Positions 8,766 through 43,464 of a stretch of DNA of 64,000 nt are shown here, piece by piece. How positions within the stretch are numbered: position 1 is the first letter of the stretch; every line of letters begins with the position of its first letter. The stretch lies in assembly GCF_013122565.1 (NCBI RefSeq), contig NZ_CP053258.1; one strand, 5' to 3'. The position numbers were made by a program, and so were the translations under genes. Source of the stretch: Escherichia coli (GTDB lineage Bacteria > Pseudomonadota > Gammaproteobacteria > Enterobacterales > Enterobacteriaceae). The notes below the pieces were generated by a model. That model searched no databases, had not been told where the DNA came from, and was given only the letters and a program-made list of their open reading frames with translations.

Positions 8766-9338
8766 ATGGAGCAAGAAAATCCTGAAGATAGAAAGTGTTG
8801 TCGACCGAAAAAAACGTTCTCTTTAACCAGAAAATTACTGGTATGTTTTATCTTTACCCTCATTGTATTCAGTGGTTGTTTATTTGTCGTTATGAACACG
8901 GTCATTCATAACACCAGCACTGACAGCTTTTGCCTGGGTTGTCATGAAATGAAAGACAACATCCTTACCGAGAGTTTCAAAAAATCCATTCATGGCAGTA
9001 ATCGTACTGGCGTGAAAGTCGCTTGTGCCGATTGCCATATTCCTGATGAATTTGTCCCTAAGATGATCAGAAAAGCCCACGCCGTTAAAGAGGTTTGGGG
9101 GCATATGACAGGCGTAATTGATACGGCCGATAAATTCGATGCACATCGTGGCGAAATGGCAAAAGCGGAATGGGCAAGAATGAAAGCAAACAATTCGCAG
9201 GAATGCAGAGACTGCCACGATATTTCTAAATTACAGAAAAAATTTATGGCGCCGTTCCATGAGGCTTCTCTTAAAGAAGGGAAAACATGCATTGATTGTC
9301 ATGCCGGCATTGCACATAAATTACCAGCAGTTCATTAG
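8766..9338 (+). CDS. NapC/NirT/CymA-family membrane-anchored tetraheme cytochrome c (putative quinol dehydrogenase)
   Basis: 190-aa ORF with an N-terminal transmembrane helix and four CxxCH heme-binding motifs (CLGCH, CADCH, CRDCH, CIDCH); AAGGA Shine-Dalgarno sequence 8 nt upstream; AT-rich codon usage. Confidence 0.85.
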   Translation: MEQENPEDRKCCRPKKTFSLTRKLLVCFIFTLIVFSGCLFVVMNTVIHNTSTDSFCLGCHEMKDNILTESFKKSIHGSNRTGVKVACADCHIPDEFVPKMIRKAHAVKEVWGHMTGVIDTADKFDAHRGEMAKAEWARMKANNSQECRDCHDISKLQKKFMAPFHEASLKEGKTCIDCHAGIAHKLPAVH

Positions 9339-9431
9339 TCATTAATACATGAATGTCATGTCTGTCTGGTTTCAAATAAAAACAAGAAGGGTTTCATGTT
9401 GATTTAAGTTTTTATGTAAAAGGACCATGTT

Positions 9432-11072
9432 ATGAGGAAACTAAAAAGGGGATTCTTATTGGCTGGGGTATTAACGGCACTTTCTCTAAGCGCTTATGCT
9501 GACAGAAATATGAATAAGATCCCGCATATCAATCTGTCGAATCCATCCGTCGAACCAGTTAGTGAGAGAATAATCCAAACAGATATTGTTGTTATTGGCG
9601 GTGGGCTTTCTGGCATGTCCGCAGGGTTGACTGCAGTACAGGGCGGAGCCAAAGTTGTTATTTTTGAAAAACTACCAAGCCTTGGAGGGGCAGGCGTTTA
9701 TCCTGAAGGCAGTTTAGGCATTGGCACCCTTATGCAAAAAAAAGAGGGGAAAGGTGCCACGCTGAATCAAGCCTTTGGTAAGGCGATCGATTTCCATCAC
9801 TGGCGAGCCAATGCTAGTGCATTGCACGCATTAATGAAAAACTCAGGCGAAACCATTGATTGGGTTGCCAGTAATGGCGTTGAGTTTACGACCTTAAAAA
9901 CCACCATTTATCCTCAGTCAGATTCATTATGGACCTGGCATATGTATAAGCATAATGGTGCATCTGTTACTAAAAGCTTTTACAAGAAGATCCTTGATGG
10001 AGGTGGGCAAATCTACACCGAAACTCCTGTTAAGAAGATTCTTCGCGACAAACAAAGCGGTGATGTCGTTGGCGTCGAAGCGGTTAATAGCGTAACAGGG
10101 GAAAAAATCATTGCCTATGGTAAGGGTGTGATTGTGGCGACCGGTGGTTTTGCCAACAACCGTGACATGATTGAAAAATACATCACCGATGTGAATCAGA
10201 AAAACATGGTGCCGGTCAAACTACGTGGCCCCCTGATTGATGGACGCGAAGGCGATGGTATCAAAATGGGGCAAGACATTGGCGCTGATACTGCCGGGAT
10301 GCAAACCATTGCTGGCAATAGCCCATATGTCGATCAAGACCCTCCTATCCGTCAGTTTAATGGCGCGGATTACCAAAAACAGGCCAGAACGTCATTAAGC
10401 CAGCCATTCCTGTGGATTAACCGACAAGGCGAGCGTTTCTTTGATGAGTCACTCGGTTCCAGTTTTACCCTCGTTTATAACGCTATCACCATGAATGGCG
10501 GAGTCATGTATTCTGTCTGGGATGATGCAATGCGCCAGAAGATGGTTAACGAAGGGCCGGTTACACCGTTTAACGCCATCGTGTTGCCTGGGCAGCCGAT
10601 GAAGGCGCTGGATCAGGCGATCGAAATCGGCATGAAAGAAGGGTGGTTATTTAAAGGTGAAACGTTGGACGATCTGGCAAAACAGATCAATGTTCCTGCA
10701 GACAATCTGAAAGCGACGATTGCGAAAGTAAACAAGTATACGGATGAAGGTTTCGATCCTGACTGGGGGCGCAAGAAAGAGCATCTGTTTAAATTTCAGG
10801 ATAAAGGACCGTATTACGCCGTGAAAGGTATTCGGGCTTATTTCCTGACGCTGGGTGGTTTGAAAATGAACAGCGATCTGCAGGTCTACGATACCAATGA
10901 GAAGATTATCCCAGGTCTGTATGTTGTCGGGCAGGATATGGGCGGTCTGTATGACAGCTCCTATGATTTGGTACTTGAAGGATCGGCTTCTGGCTTTGCG
11001 TTGACGTCGGGACGTATGGCAGCGAAACATATTATAAGCACCAGAGTGCAGGCACAGGGAGGAGGCAAATGA
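9432..11072 (+). CDS. Periplasmic FAD-dependent flavoprotein reductase, fumarate-reductase/flavocytochrome-c family (substrate unknown)
   Basis: 546-aa ORF; signal peptide MRKLKRGFLLAGVLTALSLSAYA; dinucleotide-binding fold VVIGGGLSGMSAG; C-terminal FAD-binding motif of the FrdA/SdhA family (…GLYVVGQDMGG…); its stop overlaps the next start (ATGA). Confidence 0.85.
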   Translation: MRKLKRGFLLAGVLTALSLSAYADRNMNKIPHINLSNPSVEPVSERIIQTDIVVIGGGLSGMSAGLTAVQGGAKVVIFEKLPSLGGAGVYPEGSLGIGTLMQKKEGKGATLNQAFGKAIDFHHWRANASALHALMKNSGETIDWVASNGVEFTTLKTTIYPQSDSLWTWHMYKHNGASVTKSFYKKILDGGGQIYTETPVKKILRDKQSGDVVGVEAVNSVTGEKIIAYGKGVIVATGGFANNRDMIEKYITDVNQKNMVPVKLRGPLIDGREGDGIKMGQDIGADTAGMQTIAGNSPYVDQDPPIRQFNGADYQKQARTSLSQPFLWINRQGERFFDESLGSSFTLVYNAITMNGGVMYSVWDDAMRQKMVNEGPVTPFNAIVLPGQPMKALDQAIEIGMKEGWLFKGETLDDLAKQINVPADNLKATIAKVNKYTDEGFDPDWGRKKEHLFKFQDKGPYYAVKGIRAYFLTLGGLKMNSDLQVYDTNEKIIPGLYVVGQDMGGLYDSSYDLVLEGSASGFALTSGRMAAKHIISTRVQAQGGGK

Positions 11073-11479
11073 GTAAGCTATTGAAGAACATTGTCACAAT
11101 CATTCTTGCTGGCGTAATGTGCACCGTTATCGGTATGGTTTCTGCCAGTGCACAAGAGATTGTCGGCATGAAAATGCACAAGACCATTGGTCTGGAATGT
11201 AATAACTGCCATGTTGATGATGTTAAAGCCAACAAGAATATGACGCCAACGTGCGTTAGCTGCCATGCGCCTGGTGAGCGTTATTATCATGGTAAGAAGG
11301 ATTCAGAAGGTAACTCAGTGTTAAAAGAGTATCCGGAGTCGGGTAAAACACGAGTTGCGTCTTTCCATGACTCTCATGGCGGGGAAATTCGCTGTACGGT
11401 ATGCCATACGTCACATGAGAAGGAACCACAGCCACTCTATTGCAACAACTGCCATCAGTTTGATGTGAAGATTAAGTAG
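11069..11479 (+). CDS. Small periplasmic tetraheme cytochrome c
   Basis: 136-aa ORF with N-terminal signal/anchor and four CxxCH motifs (CNNCH, CVSCH, CTVCH, CNNCH); strong GGAGG ribosome-binding site; translationally coupled to the flavoprotein gene. Confidence 0.8.
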   Translation: MSKLLKNIVTIILAGVMCTVIGMVSASAQEIVGMKMHKTIGLECNNCHVDDVKANKNMTPTCVSCHAPGERYYHGKKDSEGNSVLKEYPESGKTRVASFHDSHGGEIRCTVCHTSHEKEPQPLYCNNCHQFDVKIK

Positions 11480-32946: not shown

Positions 32947-34638
32947 ATGAAAACGCTGCTGATTATTGACGCTAATCTCGGTCAGGCACGCGCCTATATG
33001 GCGAAGACCCTGCTGGGCGCGGCGGCGCGAAAAGCAAAACTGGAAATCATCGACAATCCGAACGACGCTGAAATGGCGATTGTTCTCGGTGATTCCATCC
33101 CGAACGACAGCGCGCTGAACGGTAAAAATGTCTGGCTGGGCGATATTTCCCGGGCAGTTGCGCACCCTGAGCTGTTCCTGAGCGAAGCCAAAGGCCATGC
33201 GAAACCTTACACTGCGCCGGTCGCTGCGACAGCACCGGTTGCCGCCAGCGGTCCGAAACGCGTAGTTGCGGTGACTGCTTGCCCGACTGGCGTAGCACAC
33301 ACCTTTATGGCGGCTGAAGCCATTGAAACCGAAGCGAAAAAACGTGGCTGGTGGGTGAAAGTTGAAACCCGTGGTTCTGTTGGCGCGGGTAATGCAATCA
33401 CTCCAGAAGAAGTAGCCGCAGCGGATCTGGTGATTGTGGCGGCAGATATCGAAGTGGATCTGGCGAAATTTGCTGGTAAACCGATGTATCGTACCTCTAC
33501 CGGTCTGGCGCTGAAGAAAACCGCGCAGGAACTGGATAAAGCGGTTGCTGAAGCAACGCCGTATGAACCGGCGGGCAAAGCTCAAACGGCGACCTCTGAA
33601 GGTAAGAAAGAGAGTGCAGGCGCATACCGTCACTTGCTGACGGGCGTCTCTTACATGCTGCCGATGGTCGTTGCAGGTGGTCTGTGTATCGCGCTTTCTT
33701 TTGCTTTTGGTATCGAAGCGTTTAAAGAGCCGGGTACGTTGGCAGCGGCGCTGATGCAGATTGGTGGTGGTTCAGCCTTTGCGCTGATGGTGCCGGTACT
33801 GGCAGGTTACATTGCCTTCTCCATTGCCGATCGTCCGGGTCTCACGCCGGGTCTGATTGGCGGTATGCTGGCGGTCAGCACCGGTTCTGGCTTCATTGGC
33901 GGTATTATTGCGGGCTTCCTGGCTGGTTACATTGCGAAGTTAATCAGTACGCAACTGAAACTGCCACAGAGTATGGAGGCGCTGAAACCGATCCTGATCA
34001 TTCCGCTAATTTCCAGTCTGGTGGTCGGTCTGGCGATGATCTACCTGATCGGTAAACCGGTTGCTGGCATTCTCGAAGGGTTGACTCACTGGCTGCAGAC
34101 CATGGGGACTGCGAATGCGGTTCTGCTGGGGGCGATCCTCGGTGGCATGATGTGTACTGACATGGGCGGTCCGGTAAATAAAGCAGCGTACGCATTCGGT
34201 GTGGGTCTGCTGAGTACTCAAACCTATGGCCCGATGGCGGCGATTATGGCGGCAGGTATGGTGCCACCGCTGGCAATGGGTCTGGCAACAATGGTGGCGC
34301 GTCGCAAATTTGACAAAGCGCAGCAGGAAGGTGGCAAAGCCGCTCTGGTTCTTGGTCTGTGCTTTATTTCGGAAGGTGCAATTCCGTTTGCTGCTCGTGA
34401 TCCGATGCGTGTGCTGCCGTGCTGTATCGTGGGTGGGGCGCTGACTGGCGCAATCTCAATGGCGATTGGTGCGAAACTGATGGCACCGCACGGTGGTCTG
34501 TTTGTTCTACTGATCCCTGGCGCTATTACGCCTGTATTGGGTTACCTGGTAGCAATTATTGCCGGTACGCTGGTGGCGGGTTTGGCCTATGCCTTCCTGA
34601 AACGTCCGGAAGTGGACGCAGTAGCGAAAGCAGCGTAA
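32947..34638 (+). CDS. fruA: Fructose PTS permease IIB'BC component
   Basis: 563-aa ORF with duplicated IIB domains (CPTGVAHT) and an IIC membrane domain. Confidence 0.9.
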   Translation: MKTLLIIDANLGQARAYMAKTLLGAAARKAKLEIIDNPNDAEMAIVLGDSIPNDSALNGKNVWLGDISRAVAHPELFLSEAKGHAKPYTAPVAATAPVAASGPKRVVAVTACPTGVAHTFMAAEAIETEAKKRGWWVKVETRGSVGAGNAITPEEVAAADLVIVAADIEVDLAKFAGKPMYRTSTGLALKKTAQELDKAVAEATPYEPAGKAQTATSEGKKESAGAYRHLLTGVSYMLPMVVAGGLCIALSFAFGIEAFKEPGTLAAALMQIGGGSAFALMVPVLAGYIAFSIADRPGLTPGLIGGMLAVSTGSGFIGGIIAGFLAGYIAKLISTQLKLPQSMEALKPILIIPLISSLVVGLAMIYLIGKPVAGILEGLTHWLQTMGTANAVLLGAILGGMMCTDMGGPVNKAAYAFGVGLLSTQTYGPMAAIMAAGMVPPLAMGLATMVARRKFDKAQQEGGKAALVLGLCFISEGAIPFAARDPMRVLPCCIVGGALTGAISMAIGAKLMAPHGGLFVLLIPGAITPVLGYLVAIIAGTLVAGLAYAFLKRPEVDAVAKAA

Positions 34639-34649
34639 TAAAAGGTGTG

Positions 34650-34680
34650 TTACAGGGCAGAAATTTCCTGCCCTGTATCA
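34650..34680 (+). terminator. Putative terminator downstream of fruA
   Basis: Hairpin acagggcag-aaatttc-ctgccctgt immediately after the fruA stop; weak T-tract. Confidence 0.45.
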
Positions 34681-34946
34681 TTGGATGAGCGCAAAGGGAA
34701 TGACCGGCTTATGAATGTAATTTTATGAATTTAAATGGTTTTATCTTTCAGTAGAAACCTGAAACGTTCATCAAACACTAAGGTTATTTCCTCAAGGGCA
34801 GATTATTTTCTGCCCTTTTTTATTGTTCCTGTTCTGTGCATCCCGTCACAAATTCCTCGCTTTTGTAATTCAGGCATTTAATCGCATTTTGTGAGCCTGC
34901 TCAAATCTGCCCATTTTGCCTCTCTGGCGGTAATTTACTTTACGTA

Positions 34947-34994
34947 AAACATGCATACTATGAGCACATGTTTAAATATGAACACATGTTTAAA
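34947..34994. promoter_or_regulatory. Repeat-containing putative operator in the psuK promoter region
   Basis: Two direct copies of CACATGTTTAAA (34965-34976 and 34983-34994) plus an inverted half-site AAACATG (34947-34953), 70-115 bp upstream of psuK. Confidence 0.4.
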
Positions 34995-35061
34995 CCGTCT
35001 TTGCAGTATCTATATTCTTGTGGATTGACAGGGTTGGTAATTTTTTACCAGAGGACGTGCT

Positions 35062-36003
35062 ATGCGCGAAAAGGATTATGTCGTAATTATAGGTTCGGCG
35101 AATATTGATGTCGCCGGATATTCACATGAATCATTAAATTATGCGGATTCAAATCCAGGTAAAATAAAATTTACGCCTGGTGGAGTCGGGCGCAATATTG
35201 CACAAAACCTGGCGTTGCTGGGGAATAAAGCCTGGCTACTTAGCGCAGTAGGCAGTGATTTTTATGGTCAATCGTTGCTAACGCAAACCAATCAATCTGG
35301 TGTTTATGTCGATAAATGCCTGATTGTGCCGGGAGAAAATACGTCGAGCTATTTATCATTACTCGATAATACCGGTGAAATGCTGGTTGCTATAAATGAC
35401 ATGAATATTAGCAACGCTATTACAGCTGAATATCTCGCACAGCACCGTGAATTTATTCAGAGGGCAAAGGTCATTGTCGCGGACTGTAATATCAGTGAAG
35501 AGGCACTGGCATGGATTCTGGATAATGCCGCCAACGTACCCGTATTTGTCGATCCTGTTTCCGCGTGGAAATGTGTCAAAGTGCGCGACCGTCTAAATCA
35601 GATCCACACTCTCAAACCAAACCGCCTTGAAGCGGAAACCCTGAGTGGGATTGCGCTGTCAGGGCGTGCAGATGTGGCAAAAGTTGCTGCCTGGTTCCAT
35701 CAACATGGCCTGAACCGACTGGTATTGAGCATGGGCGGCGACGGCGTTTATTACAGCGATATCAGCGGTGAAAGTGGCTGGTCTGCGCCGATCAAAACCA
35801 ATGTCATTAATGTTACCGGAGCGGGCGATGCCATGATGGCGGGGCTTGCTTCGTGTTGGGTAGACGGAATGCCGTTTGCCGAATCTGTTCGTTTCGCACA
35901 GGGATGTTCGTCAATGGCGCTCTCCTGTGAATACACCAATAACCCCGATTTATCGATTGCCAACGTTATATCGTTAGTGGAGAACGCAGAATGTCTGAAT
36001 TAA
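35062..36003 (+). CDS. psuK: Pseudouridine kinase (PfkB family)
   Basis: 313-aa ribokinase-like ORF (…TGAGDAMMAGL…); overlaps psuG by 13 nt. Confidence 0.85.
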   Translation: MREKDYVVIIGSANIDVAGYSHESLNYADSNPGKIKFTPGGVGRNIAQNLALLGNKAWLLSAVGSDFYGQSLLTQTNQSGVYVDKCLIVPGENTSSYLSLLDNTGEMLVAINDMNISNAITAEYLAQHREFIQRAKVIVADCNISEEALAWILDNAANVPVFVDPVSAWKCVKVRDRLNQIHTLKPNRLEAETLSGIALSGRADVAKVAAWFHQHGLNRLVLSMGGDGVYYSDISGESGWSAPIKTNVINVTGAGDAMMAGLASCWVDGMPFAESVRFAQGCSSMALSCEYTNNPDLSIANVISLVENAECLN

Positions 36004-36929
36004 AAATTTCCCCTGAATTATTACAAATTTCCCCGGAAGTGCAGGACGCTTTAAAAAACAAAAAACCGGTTGTGGCGCTGGAATCGACCATTATTTCTCA
36101 CGGGATGCCGTTCCCACAAAATGCCCAGACCGCAATTGAAGTTGAAGAAACTATTCGTAAACAGGGCGCAGTACCTGCCACTATCGCCATTATTGGTGGC
36201 GTGATGAAAGTGGGTTTAAGCAAAGAAGAAATTGAATTACTGGGTCGTGAAGGGCATAACGTGACTAAAGTTAGTCGTCGCGATTTACCTTTTGTCGTTG
36301 CCGCCGGAAAAAATGGCGCAACCACCGTGGCTTCAACGATGATTATTGCGGCGCTTGCCGGAATTAAAGTATTTGCCACCGGCGGAATTGGTGGTGTTCA
36401 TCGCGGGGCGGAACATACCTTCGATATTTCTGCCGATTTGCAAGAACTGGCAAATACTAATGTCACCGTTGTTTGTGCCGGGGCGAAATCTATTCTCGAT
36501 TTAGGCTTAACTACCGAATATTTAGAAACTTTCGGTGTACCGCTAATTGGCTATCAGACCAAAGCGTTGCCTGCGTTTTTCTGCCGCACCAGCCCGTTTG
36601 ACGTCAGCATTCGTCTCGACAGCGCCAGTGAAATTGCCCGTGCAATGGCGGTGAAATGGCAAAGCGGGCTGAACGGTGGCCTCGTGGTAGCGAACCCGAT
36701 CCCGGAACAGTTTGCGATGCCGGAACAGACCATTAACGCTGCGATTGATCAGGCAGTGGCAGAAGCCGAAGAACAGGGAGTCATTGGTAAAGAAAGTACG
36801 CCATTCCTGCTGGCGCGCGTTGCTGAGCTGACCGGCGGTGACAGCCTGAAATCCAACATCCAGCTGGTGTTCAACAACGCCATTCTGGCGAGCGAAATTG
36901 CCAAAGAATATCAGCGTCTCGCGGGTTAA
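35991..36929 (+). CDS. psuG: Pseudouridine-5'-phosphate glycosidase
   Basis: 312-aa ORF of the IndA/PsuG family; conserved position. Confidence 0.85.
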   Translation: MSELKISPELLQISPEVQDALKNKKPVVALESTIISHGMPFPQNAQTAIEVEETIRKQGAVPATIAIIGGVMKVGLSKEEIELLGREGHNVTKVSRRDLPFVVAAGKNGATTVASTMIIAALAGIKVFATGGIGGVHRGAEHTFDISADLQELANTNVTVVCAGAKSILDLGLTTEYLETFGVPLIGYQTKALPAFFCRTSPFDVSIRLDSASEIARAMAVKWQSGLNGGLVVANPIPEQFAMPEQTINAAIDQAVAEAEEQGVIGKESTPFLLARVAELTGGDSLKSNIQLVFNNAILASEIAKEYQRLAG

Positions 36930-37022
36930 TTTCTGACGGGCAGAAAGCCGTCGCCCGTACTCATCAAGCATACCAAAACCTGGCGCTGACGCCGGGTTTA
37001 CTGGCATGAAGGGAAAATCATT

Positions 37023-38273
37023 ATGGATATAATGAGAAGTGTTGTGGGGATGGTGGTGTTACTGGCAATAGCATTTCTGTTGTCAGTGAATAAAAAGAGC
37101 ATCAGTTTGCGCACGGTTGGAGCCGCACTGCTGCTGCAAATCGCTATTGGTGGCATCATGCTCTACTTCCCACCGGGAAAATGGGCAGTAGAACAGGCGG
37201 CATTAGGCGTTCATAAAGTGATGTCTTACAGTGATGCCGGTAGCGCCTTTATTTTTGGTTCGCTGGTTGGGCCGAAAATGGATGTCCTGTTTGACGGTGC
37301 GGGTTTTATCTTCGCCTTTCGCGTACTTCCGGCGATTATCTTCGTCACTGCGCTCATTAGTCTGCTGTACTACATTGGCGTGATGGGGCTGCTGATTCGC
37401 ATCCTTGGCAGCATTTTCCAGAAAGCCCTCAACATCAGCAAAATCGAATCTTTTGTCGCAGTCACCACTATTTTCCTCGGGCAAAATGAGATCCCGGCGA
37501 TCGTTAAACCGTTTATCGATCGCATGAATCGCAACGAGTTGTTTACCGCAATTTGTAGCGGGATGGCGTCCATTGCTGGTTCGATGATGATTGGTTATGC
37601 CGGAATGGGCGTACCAATTGACTACCTGTTAGCGGCATCGCTGATGGCGATCCCCGGCGGTATTTTGTTTGCACGTATTCTTAGCCCGGCAACCGAGCCT
37701 TCGCAGGTCACATTTGAAAATCTGTCGTTCAGCGAAACGCCGCCAAAAAGCTTTATCGAAGCGGCGGCGAGCGGTGCGATGACCGGGCTGAAAATCGCCG
37801 CTGGTGTGGCGACGGTGGTCATGGCGTTTGTCGCAATTATTGCGCTGATCAACGGCATTATCGGCGGAATTGGCGGCTGGTTTGGTTTTGCCAATGCCTC
37901 TCTGGAAAGTATTTTTGGCTATGTGCTGGCACCGCTGGCGTGGATCATGGGTGTGGACTGGAGTGATGCCAATCTTGCGGGTAGCCTGATTGGGCAGAAA
38001 CTGGCGATTAACGAATTCGTCGCTTACCTGAGTTTCTCCCCATACCTGCAAACGGGCGGCACGCTGGAAGTGAAAACCATTGCGATTATCTCCTTTGCGC
38101 TTTGTGGTTTTGCTAACTTTGGTTCTATCGGTGTTGTCGTTGGCGCATTTTCGGCTATTTCGCCAAAACGTGCTCCGGAAATCGCTCAGCTTGGTTTACG
38201 GGCGCTGGCAGCAGCAACGCTTTCCAACCTGATGAGCGCGACTATTGCCGGGTTCTTTATTGGTTTAGCTTGA
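37023..38273 (+). CDS. psuT: NupC-family (CNT) nucleoside transporter PsuT (YeiM)
   Basis: 416-aa polytopic membrane protein; about 90% identical to the nupX product in this window. Confidence 0.85.
   Translation: MDIMRSVVGMVVLLAIAFLLSVNKKSISLRTVGAALLLQIAIGGIMLYFPPGKWAVEQAALGVHKVMSYSDAGSAFIFGSLVGPKMDVLFDGAGFIFAFRVLPAIIFVTALISLLYYIGVMGLLIRILGSIFQKALNISKIESFVAVTTIFLGQNEIPAIVKPFIDRMNRNELFTAICSGMASIAGSMMIGYAGMGVPIDYLLAASLMAIPGGILFARILSPATEPSQVTFENLSFSETPPKSFIEAAASGAMTGLKIAAGVATVVMAFVAIIALINGIIGGIGGWFGFANASLESIFGYVLAPLAWIMGVDWSDANLAGSLIGQKLAINEFVAYLSFSPYLQTGGTLEVKTIAIISFALCGFANFGSIGVVVGAFSAISPKRAPEIAQLGLRALAAATLSNLMSATIAGFFIGLA
37023..38273 (+). repeat. Dispersed duplication, copy A (psuT coding region; leader motif at 36933-36956)
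   Basis: Near-identical at the protein level (about 90%) to copy B, with shared 5'-leader motifs. Confidence 0.7.
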
Positions 38274-38281
38274 GTTTTATT

Positions 38282-38317
38282 GCCGGATGTACTCGCTTAT
38301 TAAGCGTTGCATCCGGC
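38282..38317. repeat. REP (repetitive extragenic palindromic) element
   Basis: GCCGGATG…CATCCGGC palindrome typical of E. coli REP units, between psuT and yeiL. Confidence 0.6.
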
Positions 38318-38340
38318 AATCGCACTATTGCAAATAATAT

Positions 38341-39000
38341 TTACTGCATCATCCCGGAGAATTTATTCTCCGGGTCCATCTCCAGCGCCAGTCCTGACAA
38401 CTGCTTTCTGTTTTTAATTAGATATCCTTTCTTGCTTTTAATTAATAAACCGTCGTGAATGAATTGTGCGAGAACATATAAAAGATGTCGATAAGAAACG
38501 CCTAAATACTCTGCCGCTTGCGTATGCTTTTCGTGATAAAGATCACCTTCTTGTGAGAGTAATATAAATGCTGCCAGGCGATTCACTAACGGAAATGATT
38601 GATTCTGAGTTAAAGAAACAATATTACGATAATTTTTATGACTTAAGGTGACGCAAAGTTTTCGTAAAAATAGGGTGTCGTTTAATAACAGCGGACGGTA
38701 ATGTTTCATAGGGAGCGCAAGGCACCAACACTCTTCAATAGCCTGTACCGCACGCGGTTCATGGTCTTTATCGATTAACTCAATCTCACCAATAAAACAG
38801 GGGGCGGCAAAGAAATCGATCAGCGACACGCGACCATTAGCTAGCGTGGCGTAAAGCCTGGCGCGGCCTCGCGTCAGGTAAAACAGCCAGGACGGCTGTT
38901 GCCCTTCCTGCACAATGTAGTCACGCGCTAAAAAATGAAACAGCCGCGTATCGGCTGAAACATCCGTTAAAAAGCAATCCTTAAACGCGGATTCACTCAT
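38341..39000 (-). CDS. yeiL: CRP/FNR-family transcriptional regulator YeiL
   Basis: cNMP-binding-like domain plus C-terminal HTH; start trimmed to [10 protein letters not shown]… (219 aa). Confidence 0.8.
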
Positions 39001-39168
39001 CAATTGCTGCTTAAGATCATTATTGTGGATTTCTTTCACGATGTTTATCCGCTATGAGATTTCTCATATTTAGCATACGTACGCTGTTGTTAAGATTCAA
39101 TCATCGGCCCGATCGAAATTTCTTTGCTGTAGAAAAAATAACGCAACTGGAAACAGAGGAAATAAACA

Positions 39169-40110
39169 ATGGAAAAGAGAAAAATTATTCTGGATTGTGA
39201 TCCGGGTCATGATGATGCTATTGCTATAATGATGGCGGCGAAACATCCGGCAATAGATTTATTAGGCATCACTATTGTAGCGGGTAATCAGACGCTTGAT
39301 AAAACATTAATTAATGGCCTGAATGTTTGCCAGAAACTGGAGATTAATGTTCCGGTTTATGCGGGGATGCCACAACCCATTATGCGGCAACAAATCGTTG
39401 CCGATAATATTCACGGTGATACCGGACTGGATGGCCCGGTATTCGAGCCGCTGACCCGCCAGGCAGAAAGCACTCATGCGGTGAAATACATCATTGATAC
39501 CCTGATGGCAAGCGATGGCGATATCACTCTGGTGCCGGTTGGTCCGCTTTCAAATATCGCGGTGGCAATGCGTATGCAACCCGCGATCCTGCCCAAAATC
39601 CGTGAAATTGTGCTAATGGGCGGCGCTTACGGTACAGGCAACTTCACGCCATCTGCCGAGTTCAACATCTTTGCTGACCCGGAAGCCGCACGCGTGGTGT
39701 TCACCTCCGGCGTTCCATTAGTGATGATGGGCCTCGATCTTACCAACCAGACCGTTTGCACCCCGGACGTGATTGCACGAATGGAAAGGGCAGGCGGCCC
39801 TGCCGGAGAGCTGTTCAGCGACATCATGAACTTCACTCTCAAAACCCAGTTCGAAAACTACGGCCTGGCTGGCGGCCCGGTGCACGACGCCACCTGCATC
39901 GGTTATCTGATTAACCCTGATGGCATTAAAACCCAGGAGATGTACGTCGAAGTGGACGTCAACAGTGGCCCTTGCTATGGGCGTACCGTCTGCGACGAGC
40001 TGGGCGTTCTTGGCAAGCCCGCTAATACCAAAGTCGGCATCACTATTGATACCGACTGGTTCTGGGGCTTAGTCGAAGAGTGCGTGCGCGGCTACATCAA
40101 AACCCATTAA
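39169..40110 (+). CDS. rihB: Pyrimidine-specific ribonucleoside hydrolase RihB (YeiK)
   Basis: 313-aa ORF with N-terminal DxDxxxDD nucleoside-hydrolase motif (DCDPGHDDA). Confidence 0.9.
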
Positions 40111-40209
40111 GTGTTGATAACAAGCCGGGTCAGTATCGCAAGATGCAGGCCCGGCTATTTCTGAGGGGCAGAAAGCCGTCGCCCAATATGACATGAAGAG
40201 ATAATCACT

Positions 40210-41460
40210 ATGGATGTCATGAGAAGTGTTCTGGGAATGGTGGTATTGCTGACGATTGCGTTTTTACTGTCAGTAAACAAGAAGAAGATCAGCCTGCGTA
40301 CCGTTGGCGCGGCGTTAGTGTTACAGGTCGTGATTGGCGGCATTATGCTTTGGTTACCGCCAGGGCGTTGGGTCGCTGAAAAAGTCGCTTTTGGCGTGCA
40401 TAAAGTGATGGCGTACAGCGACGCGGGTAGCGCATTTATCTTCGGTTCTCTGGTCGGACCGAAAATGGACACCTTATTTGATGGCGCAGGATTTATCTTT
40501 GGTTTCAGGGTGTTACCGGCAATTATCTTCGTCACCGCGCTGGTGAGTATTCTCTACTACATCGGTGTGATGGGGATCTTAATTCGCATTCTCGGCGGTA
40601 TCTTCCAGAAAGCATTAAATATCAGCAAGATCGAGTCATTCGTCGCGGTCACTACCATTTTCCTCGGGCAAAACGAAATTCCGGCGATCGTCAAACCCTT
40701 TATCGATCGTCTGAATCGCAATGAATTATTTACAGCGATTTGTAGTGGCATGGCCTCGATTGCTGGTTCGACAATGATTGGTTACGCCGCGCTGGGCGTG
40801 CCTGTGGAATATCTGCTGGCGGCATCATTAATGGCGATCCCTGGCGGGATCTTGTTTGCCCGCCTGTTAAGCCCGGCAACGGAATCTTCGCAGGTTTCCT
40901 TTAATAACCTCTCTTTCACCGAAACACCGCCAAAAAGCATTATTGAAGCCGCTGCGACAGGGGCAATGACCGGGCTGAAAATCGCCGCAGGTGTGGCGAC
41001 AGTAGTGATGGCATTTGTCGCCATCATTGCGTTAATTAACGGTATTATCGGCGGCGTTGGCGGCTGGTTTGATTTTGAACATGCCTCGCTGGAATCCATT
41101 TTAGGTTACCTGCTGGCCCTACTGGCGTGGGTGATGGGTGTTGACTGGAGTGATGCGAATCTTGCCGGGAGTTTGATTGGTCAGAAACTGGCAATAAATG
41201 AATTTGTCGCTTATCTCAATTTCTCACCCTATCTGCAAACAGCTGGCACTCTCGATGTTAAAACTGTGGCGATTATTTCCTTCGCGTTGTGCGGTTTCGC
41301 TAACTTTGGTTCTATCGGGGTAGTGGTGGGGGCGTTTTCTGCGGTTGCGCCACACCGCGCGCCGGAAATCGCCCAGCTTGGTTTACGTGCGCTGGCGGCG
41401 GCGACACTTTCTAACCTGATGAGCGCTACCATTGCCGGATTCTTTATTGGTTTAGCGTAG
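40210..41460 (+). CDS. nupX: NupC-family (CNT) nucleoside transporter NupX (YeiJ)
   Basis: 416-aa paralog of psuT (about 90% aa identity by eye). Confidence 0.85.
   Translation: MDVMRSVLGMVVLLTIAFLLSVNKKKISLRTVGAALVLQVVIGGIMLWLPPGRWVAEKVAFGVHKVMAYSDAGSAFIFGSLVGPKMDTLFDGAGFIFGFRVLPAIIFVTALVSILYYIGVMGILIRILGGIFQKALNISKIESFVAVTTIFLGQNEIPAIVKPFIDRLNRNELFTAICSGMASIAGSTMIGYAALGVPVEYLLAASLMAIPGGILFARLLSPATESSQVSFNNLSFTETPPKSIIEAAATGAMTGLKIAAGVATVVMAFVAIIALINGIIGGVGGWFDFEHASLESILGYLLALLAWVMGVDWSDANLAGSLIGQKLAINEFVAYLNFSPYLQTAGTLDVKTVAIISFALCGFANFGSIGVVVGAFSAVAPHRAPEIAQLGLRALAAATLSNLMSATIAGFFIGLA
40210..41460 (+). repeat. Dispersed duplication, copy B (nupX coding region; leader motif at 40161-40184)
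   Basis: Paralogous to copy A; shared leader motif ctgaSgggcagaaagccgtcgccc and a conserved ribosome-binding region. Confidence 0.7.
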
Positions 41461-41474
41461 CGCGCAATTTATGA

Positions 41475-41508
41475 GCCGGATAAGATGCGGTCAAGCGTCG
41501 AATCCGGC
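41475..41508. repeat. REP-like palindromic element
   Basis: GCCGGATAAG…AATCCGGC palindrome between nupX and yeiI. Confidence 0.5.
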
Positions 41509-41515
41509 AACATTG

Positions 41516-42604
41516 TTACACCATTGGCACTAATGAAAGCGCGTTATCGGCAGACAGGGTAGGGTTGTTTAAGCTGCCGCTGGCGCGTGAAATTGCCGCG
41601 CAGGCCATCGCAAAACGGGCGCTGTCACGGAAATTGTTTCCCTCCAGAAAGCTATATACCAGGCCCGCCATAAAACCATCGTCAGCACCAAAACTGTCTA
41701 CTGTCGTATGCGCTGGTGCGGTCAGCAAAAATTGTTCTCCATCCTTTTCGCTGCAATAAACTGACTCATCGGGCAAATAAACAAACAGTTGCTGAACACC
41801 TTGCTGATGCAACGCATTCACTGCGGCATTACGGTCAACATCGCTGGTGATCGCCTGTCCCCATAAAATTTCCAGCTCCGGTAAAGTGGGTTTCAGGGTA
41901 TGAATATGCGCCAGCCAGTGTTTGATTTTGCCCGCTTTGAATTCTGAAACGGTATCGACAAACACCGGGATCTCATCAGCGAGGGTAAAGACCCATTCCA
42001 GCGCCTCGGCTGTCAGGTTGCAATCAGCCAGTACCACGCCCGCATGACGAAGTAAATCGCGCGACCCGTTCAGTAGTTGCGGTGTCAACTGTTCCAGCAG
42101 ATGGGTATCGTTAATCGCCAGCACGGTTTGATCGTCTCGATTGGCAATTGCCAGATACGTCGATGTGCTTTGACCATGCAAACGAACGCAGCCGGAGACA
42201 TTCACGCCGGCACGGCGCGTTTCTTCCAGGAGCATTTCGCCATAAAAGTCATCGCCAATCACTGAAAGCAAATGGACGTCGCGGCCTAACAGCGCCAGAT
42301 TGTGGGCGATATTGCGTCCAACGCCGCCCGCCGAGCAATGAATTGTACCGGGATGAGAAGCCGCTTGCGGGTAACGGATATCCGCCATCCCGCGAATATC
42401 CATATTGATTGTCCCCACCACTACGCAGTATTCCTGCTCGGTGAGAATGTAACCTTTGCCTTTAATCCGGCCTTTGCGCATTAAATCCATAATATGCGCC
42501 GCAACGCGCGAACGACTGATTTGCAGCATGTCCGCAATTTCGTTCTGCTGAATCAGCGGGTTACGCCGTAAAATTGCAAGGATCTCCTTTTCCCGGTTAT
42601 TCAT
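41516..42604 (-). CDS. yeiI: PfkB-family sugar/nucleoside kinase with N-terminal HTH domain (YeiI)
   Basis: 362-aa ORF; N-terminal winged-helix (…QNEIADMLQISRSRVAAHI…) fused to a ribokinase-like domain; paralog of psuK. Confidence 0.85.
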   Translation of the reverse strand: MNNREKEILAILRRNPLIQQNEIADMLQISRSRVAAHIMDLMRKGRIKGKGYILTEQEYCVVVGTINMDIRGMADIRYPQAASHPGTIHCSAGGVGRNIAHNLALLGRDVHLLSVIGDDFYGEMLLEETRRAGVNVSGCVRLHGQSTSTYLAIANRDDQTVLAINDTHLLEQLTPQLLNGSRDLLRHAGVVLADCNLTAEALEWVFTLADEIPVFVDTVSEFKAGKIKHWLAHIHTLKPTLPELEILWGQAITSDVDRNAAVNALHQQGVQQLFVYLPDESVYCSEKDGEQFLLTAPAHTTVDSFGADDGFMAGLVYSFLEGNNFRDSARFAMACAAISRASGSLNNPTLSADNALSLVPMV

Positions 42605-42606
42605 CT

Positions 42607-43464
42607 TCAGGCTACCGCTTTTTCAGTTTGTTGCGCTTTCAGCCAGGCGATCTCTTCTGCCCAGATATCCGGGTTGATGGTTTCAAGGATCAGCGGAATG
42701 CCGTCGAAACGGTCATCCTGCATGATCCAGCGGAACGCATCATGACCGATATTGCCTTCACCGAGGCTATGATGGCGGTCAACGCGGCTGCCAAAGGTGC
42801 TTTTCGCATCGTTAAGGTGCATCCCGCGCAGATACTTAAAGCCGACAATACGGGCAAAATCAGCGAACGTTTTCTCGCATTCGGCTGGAGTACGCAAATC
42901 ATACCCGGCAGCGAAAGCATGGCAGGTATCAATGCAGACGCCGACACGGGATTTATCTTCCACGCCGTCGATAATTGCCGCGAGATGTTCGAATTTAAAC
43001 CCTAAGTTACTACCCTGACCGGCGGTGTTTTCAATCACCGCGGTCACACCTTGAGTTTTATCCAGCGCAATGTTGATGGATTCGGCAATACGCGCAAGGC
43101 AATCCTCTTCTGAAATCTGCATCAGATGGCTGCCAGGGTGGAAGTTGAGCAAAGAAAGCTCCAGCTGTTCGCAACGCTGCATTTCATCTATAAAGGCATC
43201 GCGCGATTTTTCCAGAGCTTCAGTGACCGGATGTCCGAGGTTAATCAGATAGCTGTCGTGGGGAAGAATTTGCGCCGATGTGTAGTGATATTTTTCACAG
43301 GCGGCTTTGAATTCATCGATGGTTTGCGTCGTGAGCGGTGCGGCACGCCACTGACGTTGGTTTTTGGTGAACAAGGCAAACGCGGTTGCGTCGATTTCGG
43401 CGGCGCGAATTGCGGCATTTGCCAGACCGCCAGCAGCACTAACGTGCGCTCCAATGTATTTCAT
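42607..43464 (-). CDS. nfo: Endonuclease IV (AP endonuclease)
   Basis: 285-aa [42 protein letters not shown]…; TIM-barrel AP endonuclease family 2. Confidence 0.9.

Follow-up and report, generated by a model that had tools for sequence, protein, structure and literature searches.

The closest described system to the locus studied here is that of E. coli K-12, in which psuKGT (yeiC-yeiN-yeiM) is followed by yeiL and rihB-nupX (yeiK-yeiJ). The same genes in the same order are present in a 64,000-nt stretch of E. coli DNA (contig NZ_CP053258.1), referred to below as the window, which is not from K-12 and is 93.8% identical to it over positions 36900-41600. PsuK and PsuG are established as enzymes that catabolize pseudouridine (cited in PMC9061257). 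NupX takes up uridine and cytidine with low efficiency, PsuT takes up none of uridine, cytidine, and xanthosine, and both fall within the clade of nucleoside transporters that contains vcCNT (PMC11241209). Operon context and engineering results are the grounds on which the literature regards PsuT as a pseudouridine importer. Of 5,426 complete E. coli genomes, 5,425 have the locus annotated with these same gene names in RefSeq. Since psuKGT, yeiL, rihB, and nupX, as well as the paralogous relationships among them, are already known and belong to textbook E. coli annotation, the finding of these genes is ordinary; the residual interest lies in a two-module architecture with a mosaic transporter, in transporter residue 188, in the assignment of yeiI, and in a hairpin in the transporter leaders. 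An analysis of the locus by modules, an assignment of yeiI, or a mosaic history was not found in the searchable literature.

The comparisons described here indicate that the locus is probably composed of two distinct pyrimidine-nucleoside salvage modules sharing an old, duplicated, and mosaic transporter, with the second module nested in the first in E. coli. Module A, made up of psuK-psuG-psuT and the convergent yeiI, would serve pseudouridine catabolism, and module B, made up of yeiL and rihB-nupX, would serve uridine/cytidine uptake and hydrolysis. The features of the locus are listed below in coordinates of the window, with the genes at the positions first reported for their open reading frames, as confirmed from the list of these frames.

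35062-36003, + strand: psuK, pseudouridine kinase of the PfkB family without a helix-turn-helix (HTH) domain; 713.7 bits against the NCBIfam pseudouridine kinase equivalog NF007355 (cut-off 540); PF00294
35991-36929, + strand: psuG, pseudouridine-5'-phosphate glycosidase, the RefSeq name at the E. coli locus; PF04227 (Indigoidine_A fold), E 9.6e-133
36929-37022, + strand: psuT leader and start of repeat copy 1; hairpin 1, hairpin 2, then the ribosome-binding site region
37023-38273, + strand: psuT, CNT transporter of the psu module, repeat copy 1; PF01773, PF07670, and PF07662; TIGR00804, 517.6 bits
38274-38340, no strand: psuT-yeiL intergenic region and end of repeat copy 1; palindrome TTGCCGGATG...CATCCGGCAA resembling repetitive extragenic palindromic (REP) elements, aligning with the nupX-yeiI spacer
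38341-39039, - strand: yeiL, CRP/FNR-family regulator, divergent from rihB; NF007707, 418.7 bits; PF00027 (cNMP_binding) and PF13545 (HTH_Crp_2)
39169-40110, + strand: rihB, ribosylpyrimidine nucleosidase; NF007417 equivalog, 726.5 bits (cut-off 459); PF01156 (IU_nuc_hydro)
40111-40209, + strand: rihB-nupX spacer; terminator-like hairpin at 40123-40156, repeat copy 2 from 40157, then the ribosome-binding site region
40210-41460, + strand: nupX, CNT transporter of the rihB module, repeat copy 2; TIGR00804, 493.2 bits
41461-41515, no strand: nupX-yeiI spacer and end of repeat copy 2; REP-like palindrome GCCGGATAAG...GAATCCGGC
41516-42604, - strand: yeiI, HTH and PfkB-like domains; NF007416, 812.3 bits; PF13412 at residues 1-48 and PF00294

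Both transporters belong to the CNT (SLC28/NupC) family, since NupX carries the same three Pfam domains as PsuT and both score above the TIGR00804 cut-off of 442 bits, and both match vcCNT (3TIJ) and CNT-NW (5L26) over their full length (E 1e-125 to 1e-132). As originally predicted, PsuT and NupX are paralogs of 416 residues each, with 366 of 416 residues identical (88%) and 95% positives in a gapless alignment. Calling the transporters near-identical was an overstatement at the DNA level, where 982 of 1251 positions agree (78.5%), the longest exact run is 23 nt, and identity falls from 89% and 95% at the first and second codon positions to 51% at the third. By the Nei-Gojobori method, the proportion of synonymous differences (pS) is 0.64, with a synonymous divergence (dS) of 1.43 and a nonsynonymous divergence (dN) of 0.077 (dN/dS ~ 0.05). 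The pS of nupX to its neighbor psuT is no lower than its pS to transporters of other genera (0.63-0.75), and the lowest dS in any 50-codon segment is 0.75. When 194 sites diagnostic for psuT or nupX were painted, the window genes showed only isolated sites of the opposite type and no run of them, and neither a near-identity tract nor a low-dS tract flanked by diverged sequence, as expected from recent conversion, was found in this pair. A candidate conversion tract at codons 226-325 from sliding-window dS was rejected, as the comparisons with all other genera and with the outgroup show the same dip. This lowering of pS, at codons 235-312, is present in all comparisons, Hafnia included, and was therefore attributed to constraint and not to a tract. 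In a permutation test, identical codons were used at 51% of the residue pairs with the same amino acid, compared to 38% expected; by region, the value was 38% against 38% expected for codons 1-104 and 55% against 38% for the 3' half. These results indicate that psuT and nupX are in all likelihood old copies, with synonymous sites near saturation, that have been kept alike by purifying selection rather than by recent copying. The 5' ends of the genes (codons 1-104) are maximally diverged, unlike the 3' halves, with pS in the first 100 codons (37023-37335 against 40210-40522) at 0.81-0.86, above the saturation value of 0.75.

The repeat that contains the two transporter genes extends over only ~1.4 kb. 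From the stop codon of the gene upstream, it runs through a leader of ~95 nt, in which a hairpin is conserved, and the 1251-nt coding sequence into a REP-like tail with palindromes past both stop codons. Within the leaders, a 28-nt box at 36929-36956 and 40157-40184 is identical at 27 of 28 positions; it occurs at two sites in the window, compared to 0.01 expected, and at two sites per E. coli genome. The leader is homologous across genera and in both module types.

The arrangement of the modules in the slot between fruA and nfo was read from 24 loci of other Enterobacteriaceae in a comparative scan of one genome per GTDB species, and the arrangements given here are those among the matches listed. 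Module A occurs alone, with yeiI adjoining psuT, in E. albertii, three Citrobacter, a Leclercia, and K. michiganensis, while module B occurs alone in the slot in Leclercia adecarboxylata, Salmonella enterica, a Logan assembly, C. portucalensis, and Buttiauxella. A tandem order with the rihB module first is present in a genome labelled E. hormaechei, and the nested order of E. coli, with module B between psuT and yeiI, in Entomohabitans. Superficieibacter, K. spallanzanii, and Dryocola carry the rihB module elsewhere in the chromosome. In Serratia and Hafnia, the locus consists of an HTH-kinase, psuG, and the transporter, with no second copy within it. Among these matches, yeiL accompanies rihB and a transporter in every locus containing rihB, and yeiI is intact in every locus bearing psuKG, whereas none of the five rihB-only slot loci retains more than fragments of it. 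The vestiges are informative: in C. portucalensis, a 3' remnant of psuT (residues 329-415) lies beside yeiL, where psuT ends in E. coli, and three yeiI pseudogene fragments lie between the transporter and nfo, and in the rihB-only locus of Leclercia, 5' and 3' scraps of yeiI are left. From these vestiges, the two loci descend from arrangements that contained yeiI; the ancestor of the Citrobacter locus had the nested order, and yeiI decays after psuKG is lost.

The relationship between the two transporter types was examined in neighbor-joining trees of separate gene halves. With codons 1-208 at positions 1+2, the 12 rihB-linked transporters were monophyletic in 84 of 100 bootstraps and sit within a paraphyletic psuKG-linked group; with codons 209-416 at the same positions, their monophyly was recovered in 0 of 100. 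Four residues split the types perfectly, all of them in the N-terminal half (56 V/A, 112 I/V, 188 M/T, and 195 M/L in psuKG-linked/rihB-linked copies); PsuT of the window has V56, I112, M188, and M195, and NupX has A56, V112, T188, and L195. The Serratia/Hafnia outgroup is of the psu type at three of the four. For E. coli nupX, the sister of the 5' half lies among rihB-linked genes from other genera, with Escherichia psuT in that place in 1 of 100 bootstraps, and the 3' half has the Escherichia psuT clade as its sister in 94 of 100 bootstraps when all positions are used. For these half-gene values, five further E. coli alleles were added and the Escherichia genome L001 was excluded, the first test being repeated because nupX of L001 has a real psuT-type 3' end. 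At full length, the all-position tree groups Escherichia psuT with nupX (78-84%), as do LogDet distances (82%), used with GC content at third positions to check for an artefact of composition, a grouping that vanishes with positions 1+2 and with third positions alone. Rare sites shared between nupX and Escherichia psuT show a positional skew only, with no overall excess. We take these results to mean that the rihB-linked copy originated once, long ago, and that 3' halves were exchanged afterwards, the event in Escherichia itself being old and only moderately supported.

Non-allelic exchange is seen for the psuT/nupX pair generally, both as tracts within one genome and as conflicting topologies of the gene halves. 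In L001, codons 353-384 of nupX are 99% identical to its own psuT; this converted haplotype had no match of at least 95% among 5,426 E. coli genomes, so that L001 stands for a lineage that has diverged rather than for a haplotype common in E. coli. The psuT remnant of C. portucalensis shows 96.5% identity to the 3' end of the rihB-linked gene resident in that genome, compared to 82-93% for other Citrobacter and E. coli genes. The psu-type gene of C. werkmanii and the rihB-type gene of C. portucalensis are 72-82% identical in codons 1-128 and 91-95% identical in codons 257-416, the latter being the level of the flanking core genes. Between the window and K-12, the forms of the stop codon and REP arm are swapped (GCTTGA-GT..ATTGCC.GATG vs GCGTAG/GCGTAA-..GCCGGATAAG), such that the form on psuT in the window is that on nupX in K-12 and vice versa. 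Of the conversion or re-duplication of the transporter segment that was first proposed, exchange between the copies holds for L001, C. portucalensis, and the stop/REP ends of E. coli strains, and neither process in recent form explains the likeness of the window genes, in which the suggested synonymous-substitution check revealed no tract. In the window, exchange seems to have left only an old, weak signal and the swapped stop/REP end, in contrast to its clear traces in other lineages.

In Entomohabitans, the two copies (L091, 4709-5959 and 8001-9251) are 95% identical in codons 65-96 and 90-91% in codons 129-160 and 353-384, with low pS in both halves (0.45-0.46), suggesting that conversion has been more extensive there.

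Concerted evolution by gene conversion between tandem bacterial paralogs is known, for example, for tufA/tufB. The transporter pair resembles such cases in that non-allelic exchange gives near-identity tracts within one genome (L001 and C. portucalensis) and differs from them in that homogenization is partial and mostly in the 3' half, with no recent tract in the window, ~21% DNA divergence, and distinct functions. In the history that we favor, a single event preceding the split of the sampled genera of Enterobacteriaceae would have produced the rihB-linked transporter from a psuT-like gene, and purifying selection (at the dN/dS given above) would have kept the proteins alike. The N-terminal half would hold the module-specific residues, while the C-terminal half and the 3' flank would have been repeatedly homogenized or recombined between copies, and the homology of the transporters may be what allows modules in the fruA-nfo slot to be lost, kept, or rearranged in different lineages. 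Within module A, PsuK and YeiI would be a much older pair, plausibly derived by duplication of an HTH-bearing PsuK, such as that of Serratia and Hafnia, into a plain kinase and an HTH sensor or regulator. The locus thereby illustrates how an internal paralogous gene can enable the nesting, loss, and exchange of modules.

The original prediction was of a different kind, namely an ancient segmental duplication of a kinase-hydrolase-transporter unit, in which the hydrolase was replaced and recent conversion or re-duplication kept the transporters alike. Its observations on the genes are largely borne out: two kinase and two transporter paralogs lie within one 7.5-kb stretch, PsuK and YeiI are paralogous with an extra N-terminal HTH in YeiI, PsuG and RihB show no similarity (E 4.4), the domains of YeiL are those of the CRP/FNR family, the split of the transporters is far younger than that of the kinases (88% against 40% identity), and transporter conversion is real in some lineages. 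The duplication of a whole unit, however, is contradicted, as yeiI stays with psuKGT and yeiL-rihB-nupX is a separate module. The two supposed units are not colinear, psuK, psuG, and psuT all being on the + strand while yeiI lies on the strand opposite rihB and nupX. Their parts are not equally diverged either, with identities of 40% for the kinases and 88% for the transporters, compared to 60% and 73% for the E. coli-Serratia orthologs, and an unrelated glycosidase and hydrolase. Nor do they behave as units, since yeiI is the direct neighbor of psuT wherever the rihB module is missing and is lost or decayed without psuKG. The repeat covers leader and transporter only, the dS of 1.43 and the lack of a tract in the window argue against recent copying, and swapping of enzymes is an unneeded step because the rihB module is a self-contained three-gene unit with its own regulator. 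We therefore regard this explanation as very unlikely.

Two other histories concern the transporter itself and deserve more weight, although each is improbable. Module B could be a xenolog that was built in another lineage, transferred horizontally into Escherichia, and integrated beside psuT through transporter homology, a Campbell-type or homology-facilitated event that would yield a chimeric nupX with an incoming 5' half and a resident 3' half. The contrasting affinities of the two halves of nupX fit this scenario, as do the different chromosomal location of module B in Superficieibacter, K. spallanzanii, and Dryocola, its absence from E. albertii, and the unusual polymorphism of the locus in E. 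coli. Entomohabitans shares the nested order, though, as does C. portucalensis in a decayed state, which favors an old arrangement or else several transfers of the locus as a whole; positions 1+2 lack the 3'-half signal; and the B-like 3' half that integration predicts for E. coli psuT is not visible because synonymous sites are saturated. Slightly less probable still is that no exchange took place in the E. coli lineage, the likeness of the 3' halves being due to C-terminal codon or structural constraint together with common codon usage. The pS dip at codons 235-312 in every comparison, the shared GC content at third positions of the Escherichia copies (0.54-0.57), and the lack of affinity to psuT at positions 1+2 speak for this view. 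Codon usage should affect the 5' half too, yet the affinity to psuT there is 1 of 100 and codons 1-104 are at expectation, LogDet distances still support the Escherichia group at 82%, the tracts in L001 and Citrobacter are unambiguous, and E. coli strains differ by swapped stop/REP ends.

The reading of two modules with a mosaic transporter, which we prefer, has to be set against several points. The trees are neighbor-joining trees of 26-33 sequences with saturated third positions, and the affinity of the nupX 3' half to psuT falls to 6 of 100 bootstraps with positions 1+2, so that it comes from third positions only. The pS of E. coli nupX and psuT in the 3' half is 0.54, only ~1 standard deviation under the cross-type mean. 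The comparative scan gives a modest sample of taxa, that of the matches listed, and both the nested order and module A alone are candidates for the ancestral state. No pseudouridine transport data for PsuT or NupX were found in the literature.

A further proposal, which we put forward tentatively, is that the transporter acts as a recombination hinge, with a substrate-defining N-terminal half, which stays specific to its module, and an exchangeable C-terminal half and REP tail, through which Enterobacteriaceae could swap, nest, or delete the two modules at the fruA-nfo slot. Linked to it are the possibilities that YeiI is a pseudouridine-responsive regulator of psuKGT and that the hairpin common to the leaders is a cis-acting RNA element not yet described. 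For YeiI, the comparison with PsuK gives 122 of 307 residues identical (40%, E 1e-77), with the winged HTH of YeiI occupying residues 1-48. YeiI does not belong to the pseudouridine kinase equivalog, scoring 256.6 bits against the NF007355 cut-off of 540, and lacks the canonical GAGD motif of PfkB kinases, which is replaced by GADD in all YeiI orthologs aligned. The operon kinase of Serratia and Hafnia combines an HTH_24 domain with canonical GAGD, has 60% identity to PsuK and 51% to YeiI, and falls short of both the PsuK and the YeiI equivalog cut-offs. Since yeiI lies directly beside psuT in loci without the rihB module and is lost or fragmented without psuKG, it belongs to the psu module. 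This linkage and co-loss, together with the GADD motif and the comparison with the HTH-kinase, suggests that YeiI descends from an HTH-bearing PsuK and serves the psu module as a sensor or regulator, so that an orphan HTH-kinase becomes assignable to the pseudouridine module. HTH-fused, sugar-kinase-like regulators of the ROK/NagC type exist and, like YeiI, join an HTH to a kinase fold; the fold of YeiI is PfkB and not ROK, and its regulatory role is proposed from linkage, co-loss, and the GADD change. YeiI is listed as uncharacterized in the literature, and a search for literature on yeiI as a regulator or on the evolution of the locus returned nothing specific. The kinase tree is unrooted, as the 80 fetched loci held no distant psuK/yeiI homologs useful for rooting, and the order of the kinase duplication is therefore only inferred.

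The yeiI gene starts 2 nt past the stop codon of nfo (42607-43464) on the same strand and may be co-transcribed with it; the same spacing is present in Leclercia (L082, nfo 10367-11224 and yeiI 9288-10364).

Among the residues that separate the transporter types, position 188 aligns with a site of known structure. Both PsuT and NupX have GQNE at residues 153-156, in register with G153, Q154, and E156 of vcCNT, and position 188 is in register with Val188 of vcCNT, vcCNT thus differing from both the psuKG-linked (Met) and the rihB-linked (Thr) copies. Val188 is a residue of transmembrane helix 4 that contacts the nucleobase and lines the 'nucleo-pocket' (PMC4139061; bioRxiv 10.1101/2023.02.03.527023). 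Because of this alignment with a base-contacting residue, M188/T188 is a candidate specificity determinant and may set the choice of substrate. Position 188 would then be a candidate determinant of selectivity between pseudouridine and uridine/cytidine in the CNT family, which includes human drug transporters.

In the psuT leader, hairpin 1 lies at 36936-36958 with the stem ACGGGC/GCCCGT and an 11-nt loop, and in the nupX leader at 40164-40186 with the core GGGC...GCCC at 40166-40184. Across 21 leaders, the loop is constant at 11 nt, 95% of the cells are paired, and three of six pairs show compensatory changes, such as CAGGC/GCCTG in Leclercia and U-A closing pairs. The covariation score was reached by 0 of 500 shuffles, the folding z-score of the leader is -3.1, and hairpin 1 is better conserved than synonymous sites. 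Hairpin 2 of the psuT leader (36979-36996, CCTGGCG-CTGA-CGCCGGG, followed by TTT) is among the ~41 nt that the nupX leader lacks relative to it; such a GC-rich hairpin with TTT is added in psu-type leaders and missing from most rihB-type leaders. An Rfam scan of 34500-42800 at E <=10 gave chance-level matches only, the best one overlapping the shared leader being isrJ (18.9 bits against a gathering score of 37, E 7.8), and in a scan for promoters and terminators, promoter-like sites were not in excess and neither leader hairpin was flagged. Candidate roles for the leader hairpin are a processing or stability signal, an attenuator, and an operator.

The psuG-psuT spacers of Serratia and Hafnia (L006-L009, ~120-200 nt upstream of the psuT-like gene) carry another conserved long hairpin, CCTGAAAGGTG...CACCTTTCAGG, which is preceded by CCTTAAGTTTTAYCC and has no obvious homology to the leader of Enterobacteriaceae. 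At the other end of the repeat, K-12 has an additional REP copy 3' of nupX (L092, 7565-7670).

Polymorphism of the locus among E. coli strains is unusually high: of the 5,426 genomes, the one closest to positions 34600-42700 of the window matches at only 98.1%. Among the complete E. coli genomes compared, psuT alleles differ by up to 10% in DNA and nupX alleles by up to ~5% (8% against the divergent L001), a polymorphism relevant to strain typing and pangenome analyses. In some E. coli strains, such as 25POL (L093, 6310-6375), nupX is reduced to its first 66 nt, and in E. coli 8600 (L094, 4685-6434), an IS1-associated deletion runs from mid-psuG to mid-rihB, indicating that both modules are dispensable in nature. 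Within the psu operon, psuK and psuG overlap by 13 nt (35991-36003), which suggests translational coupling.

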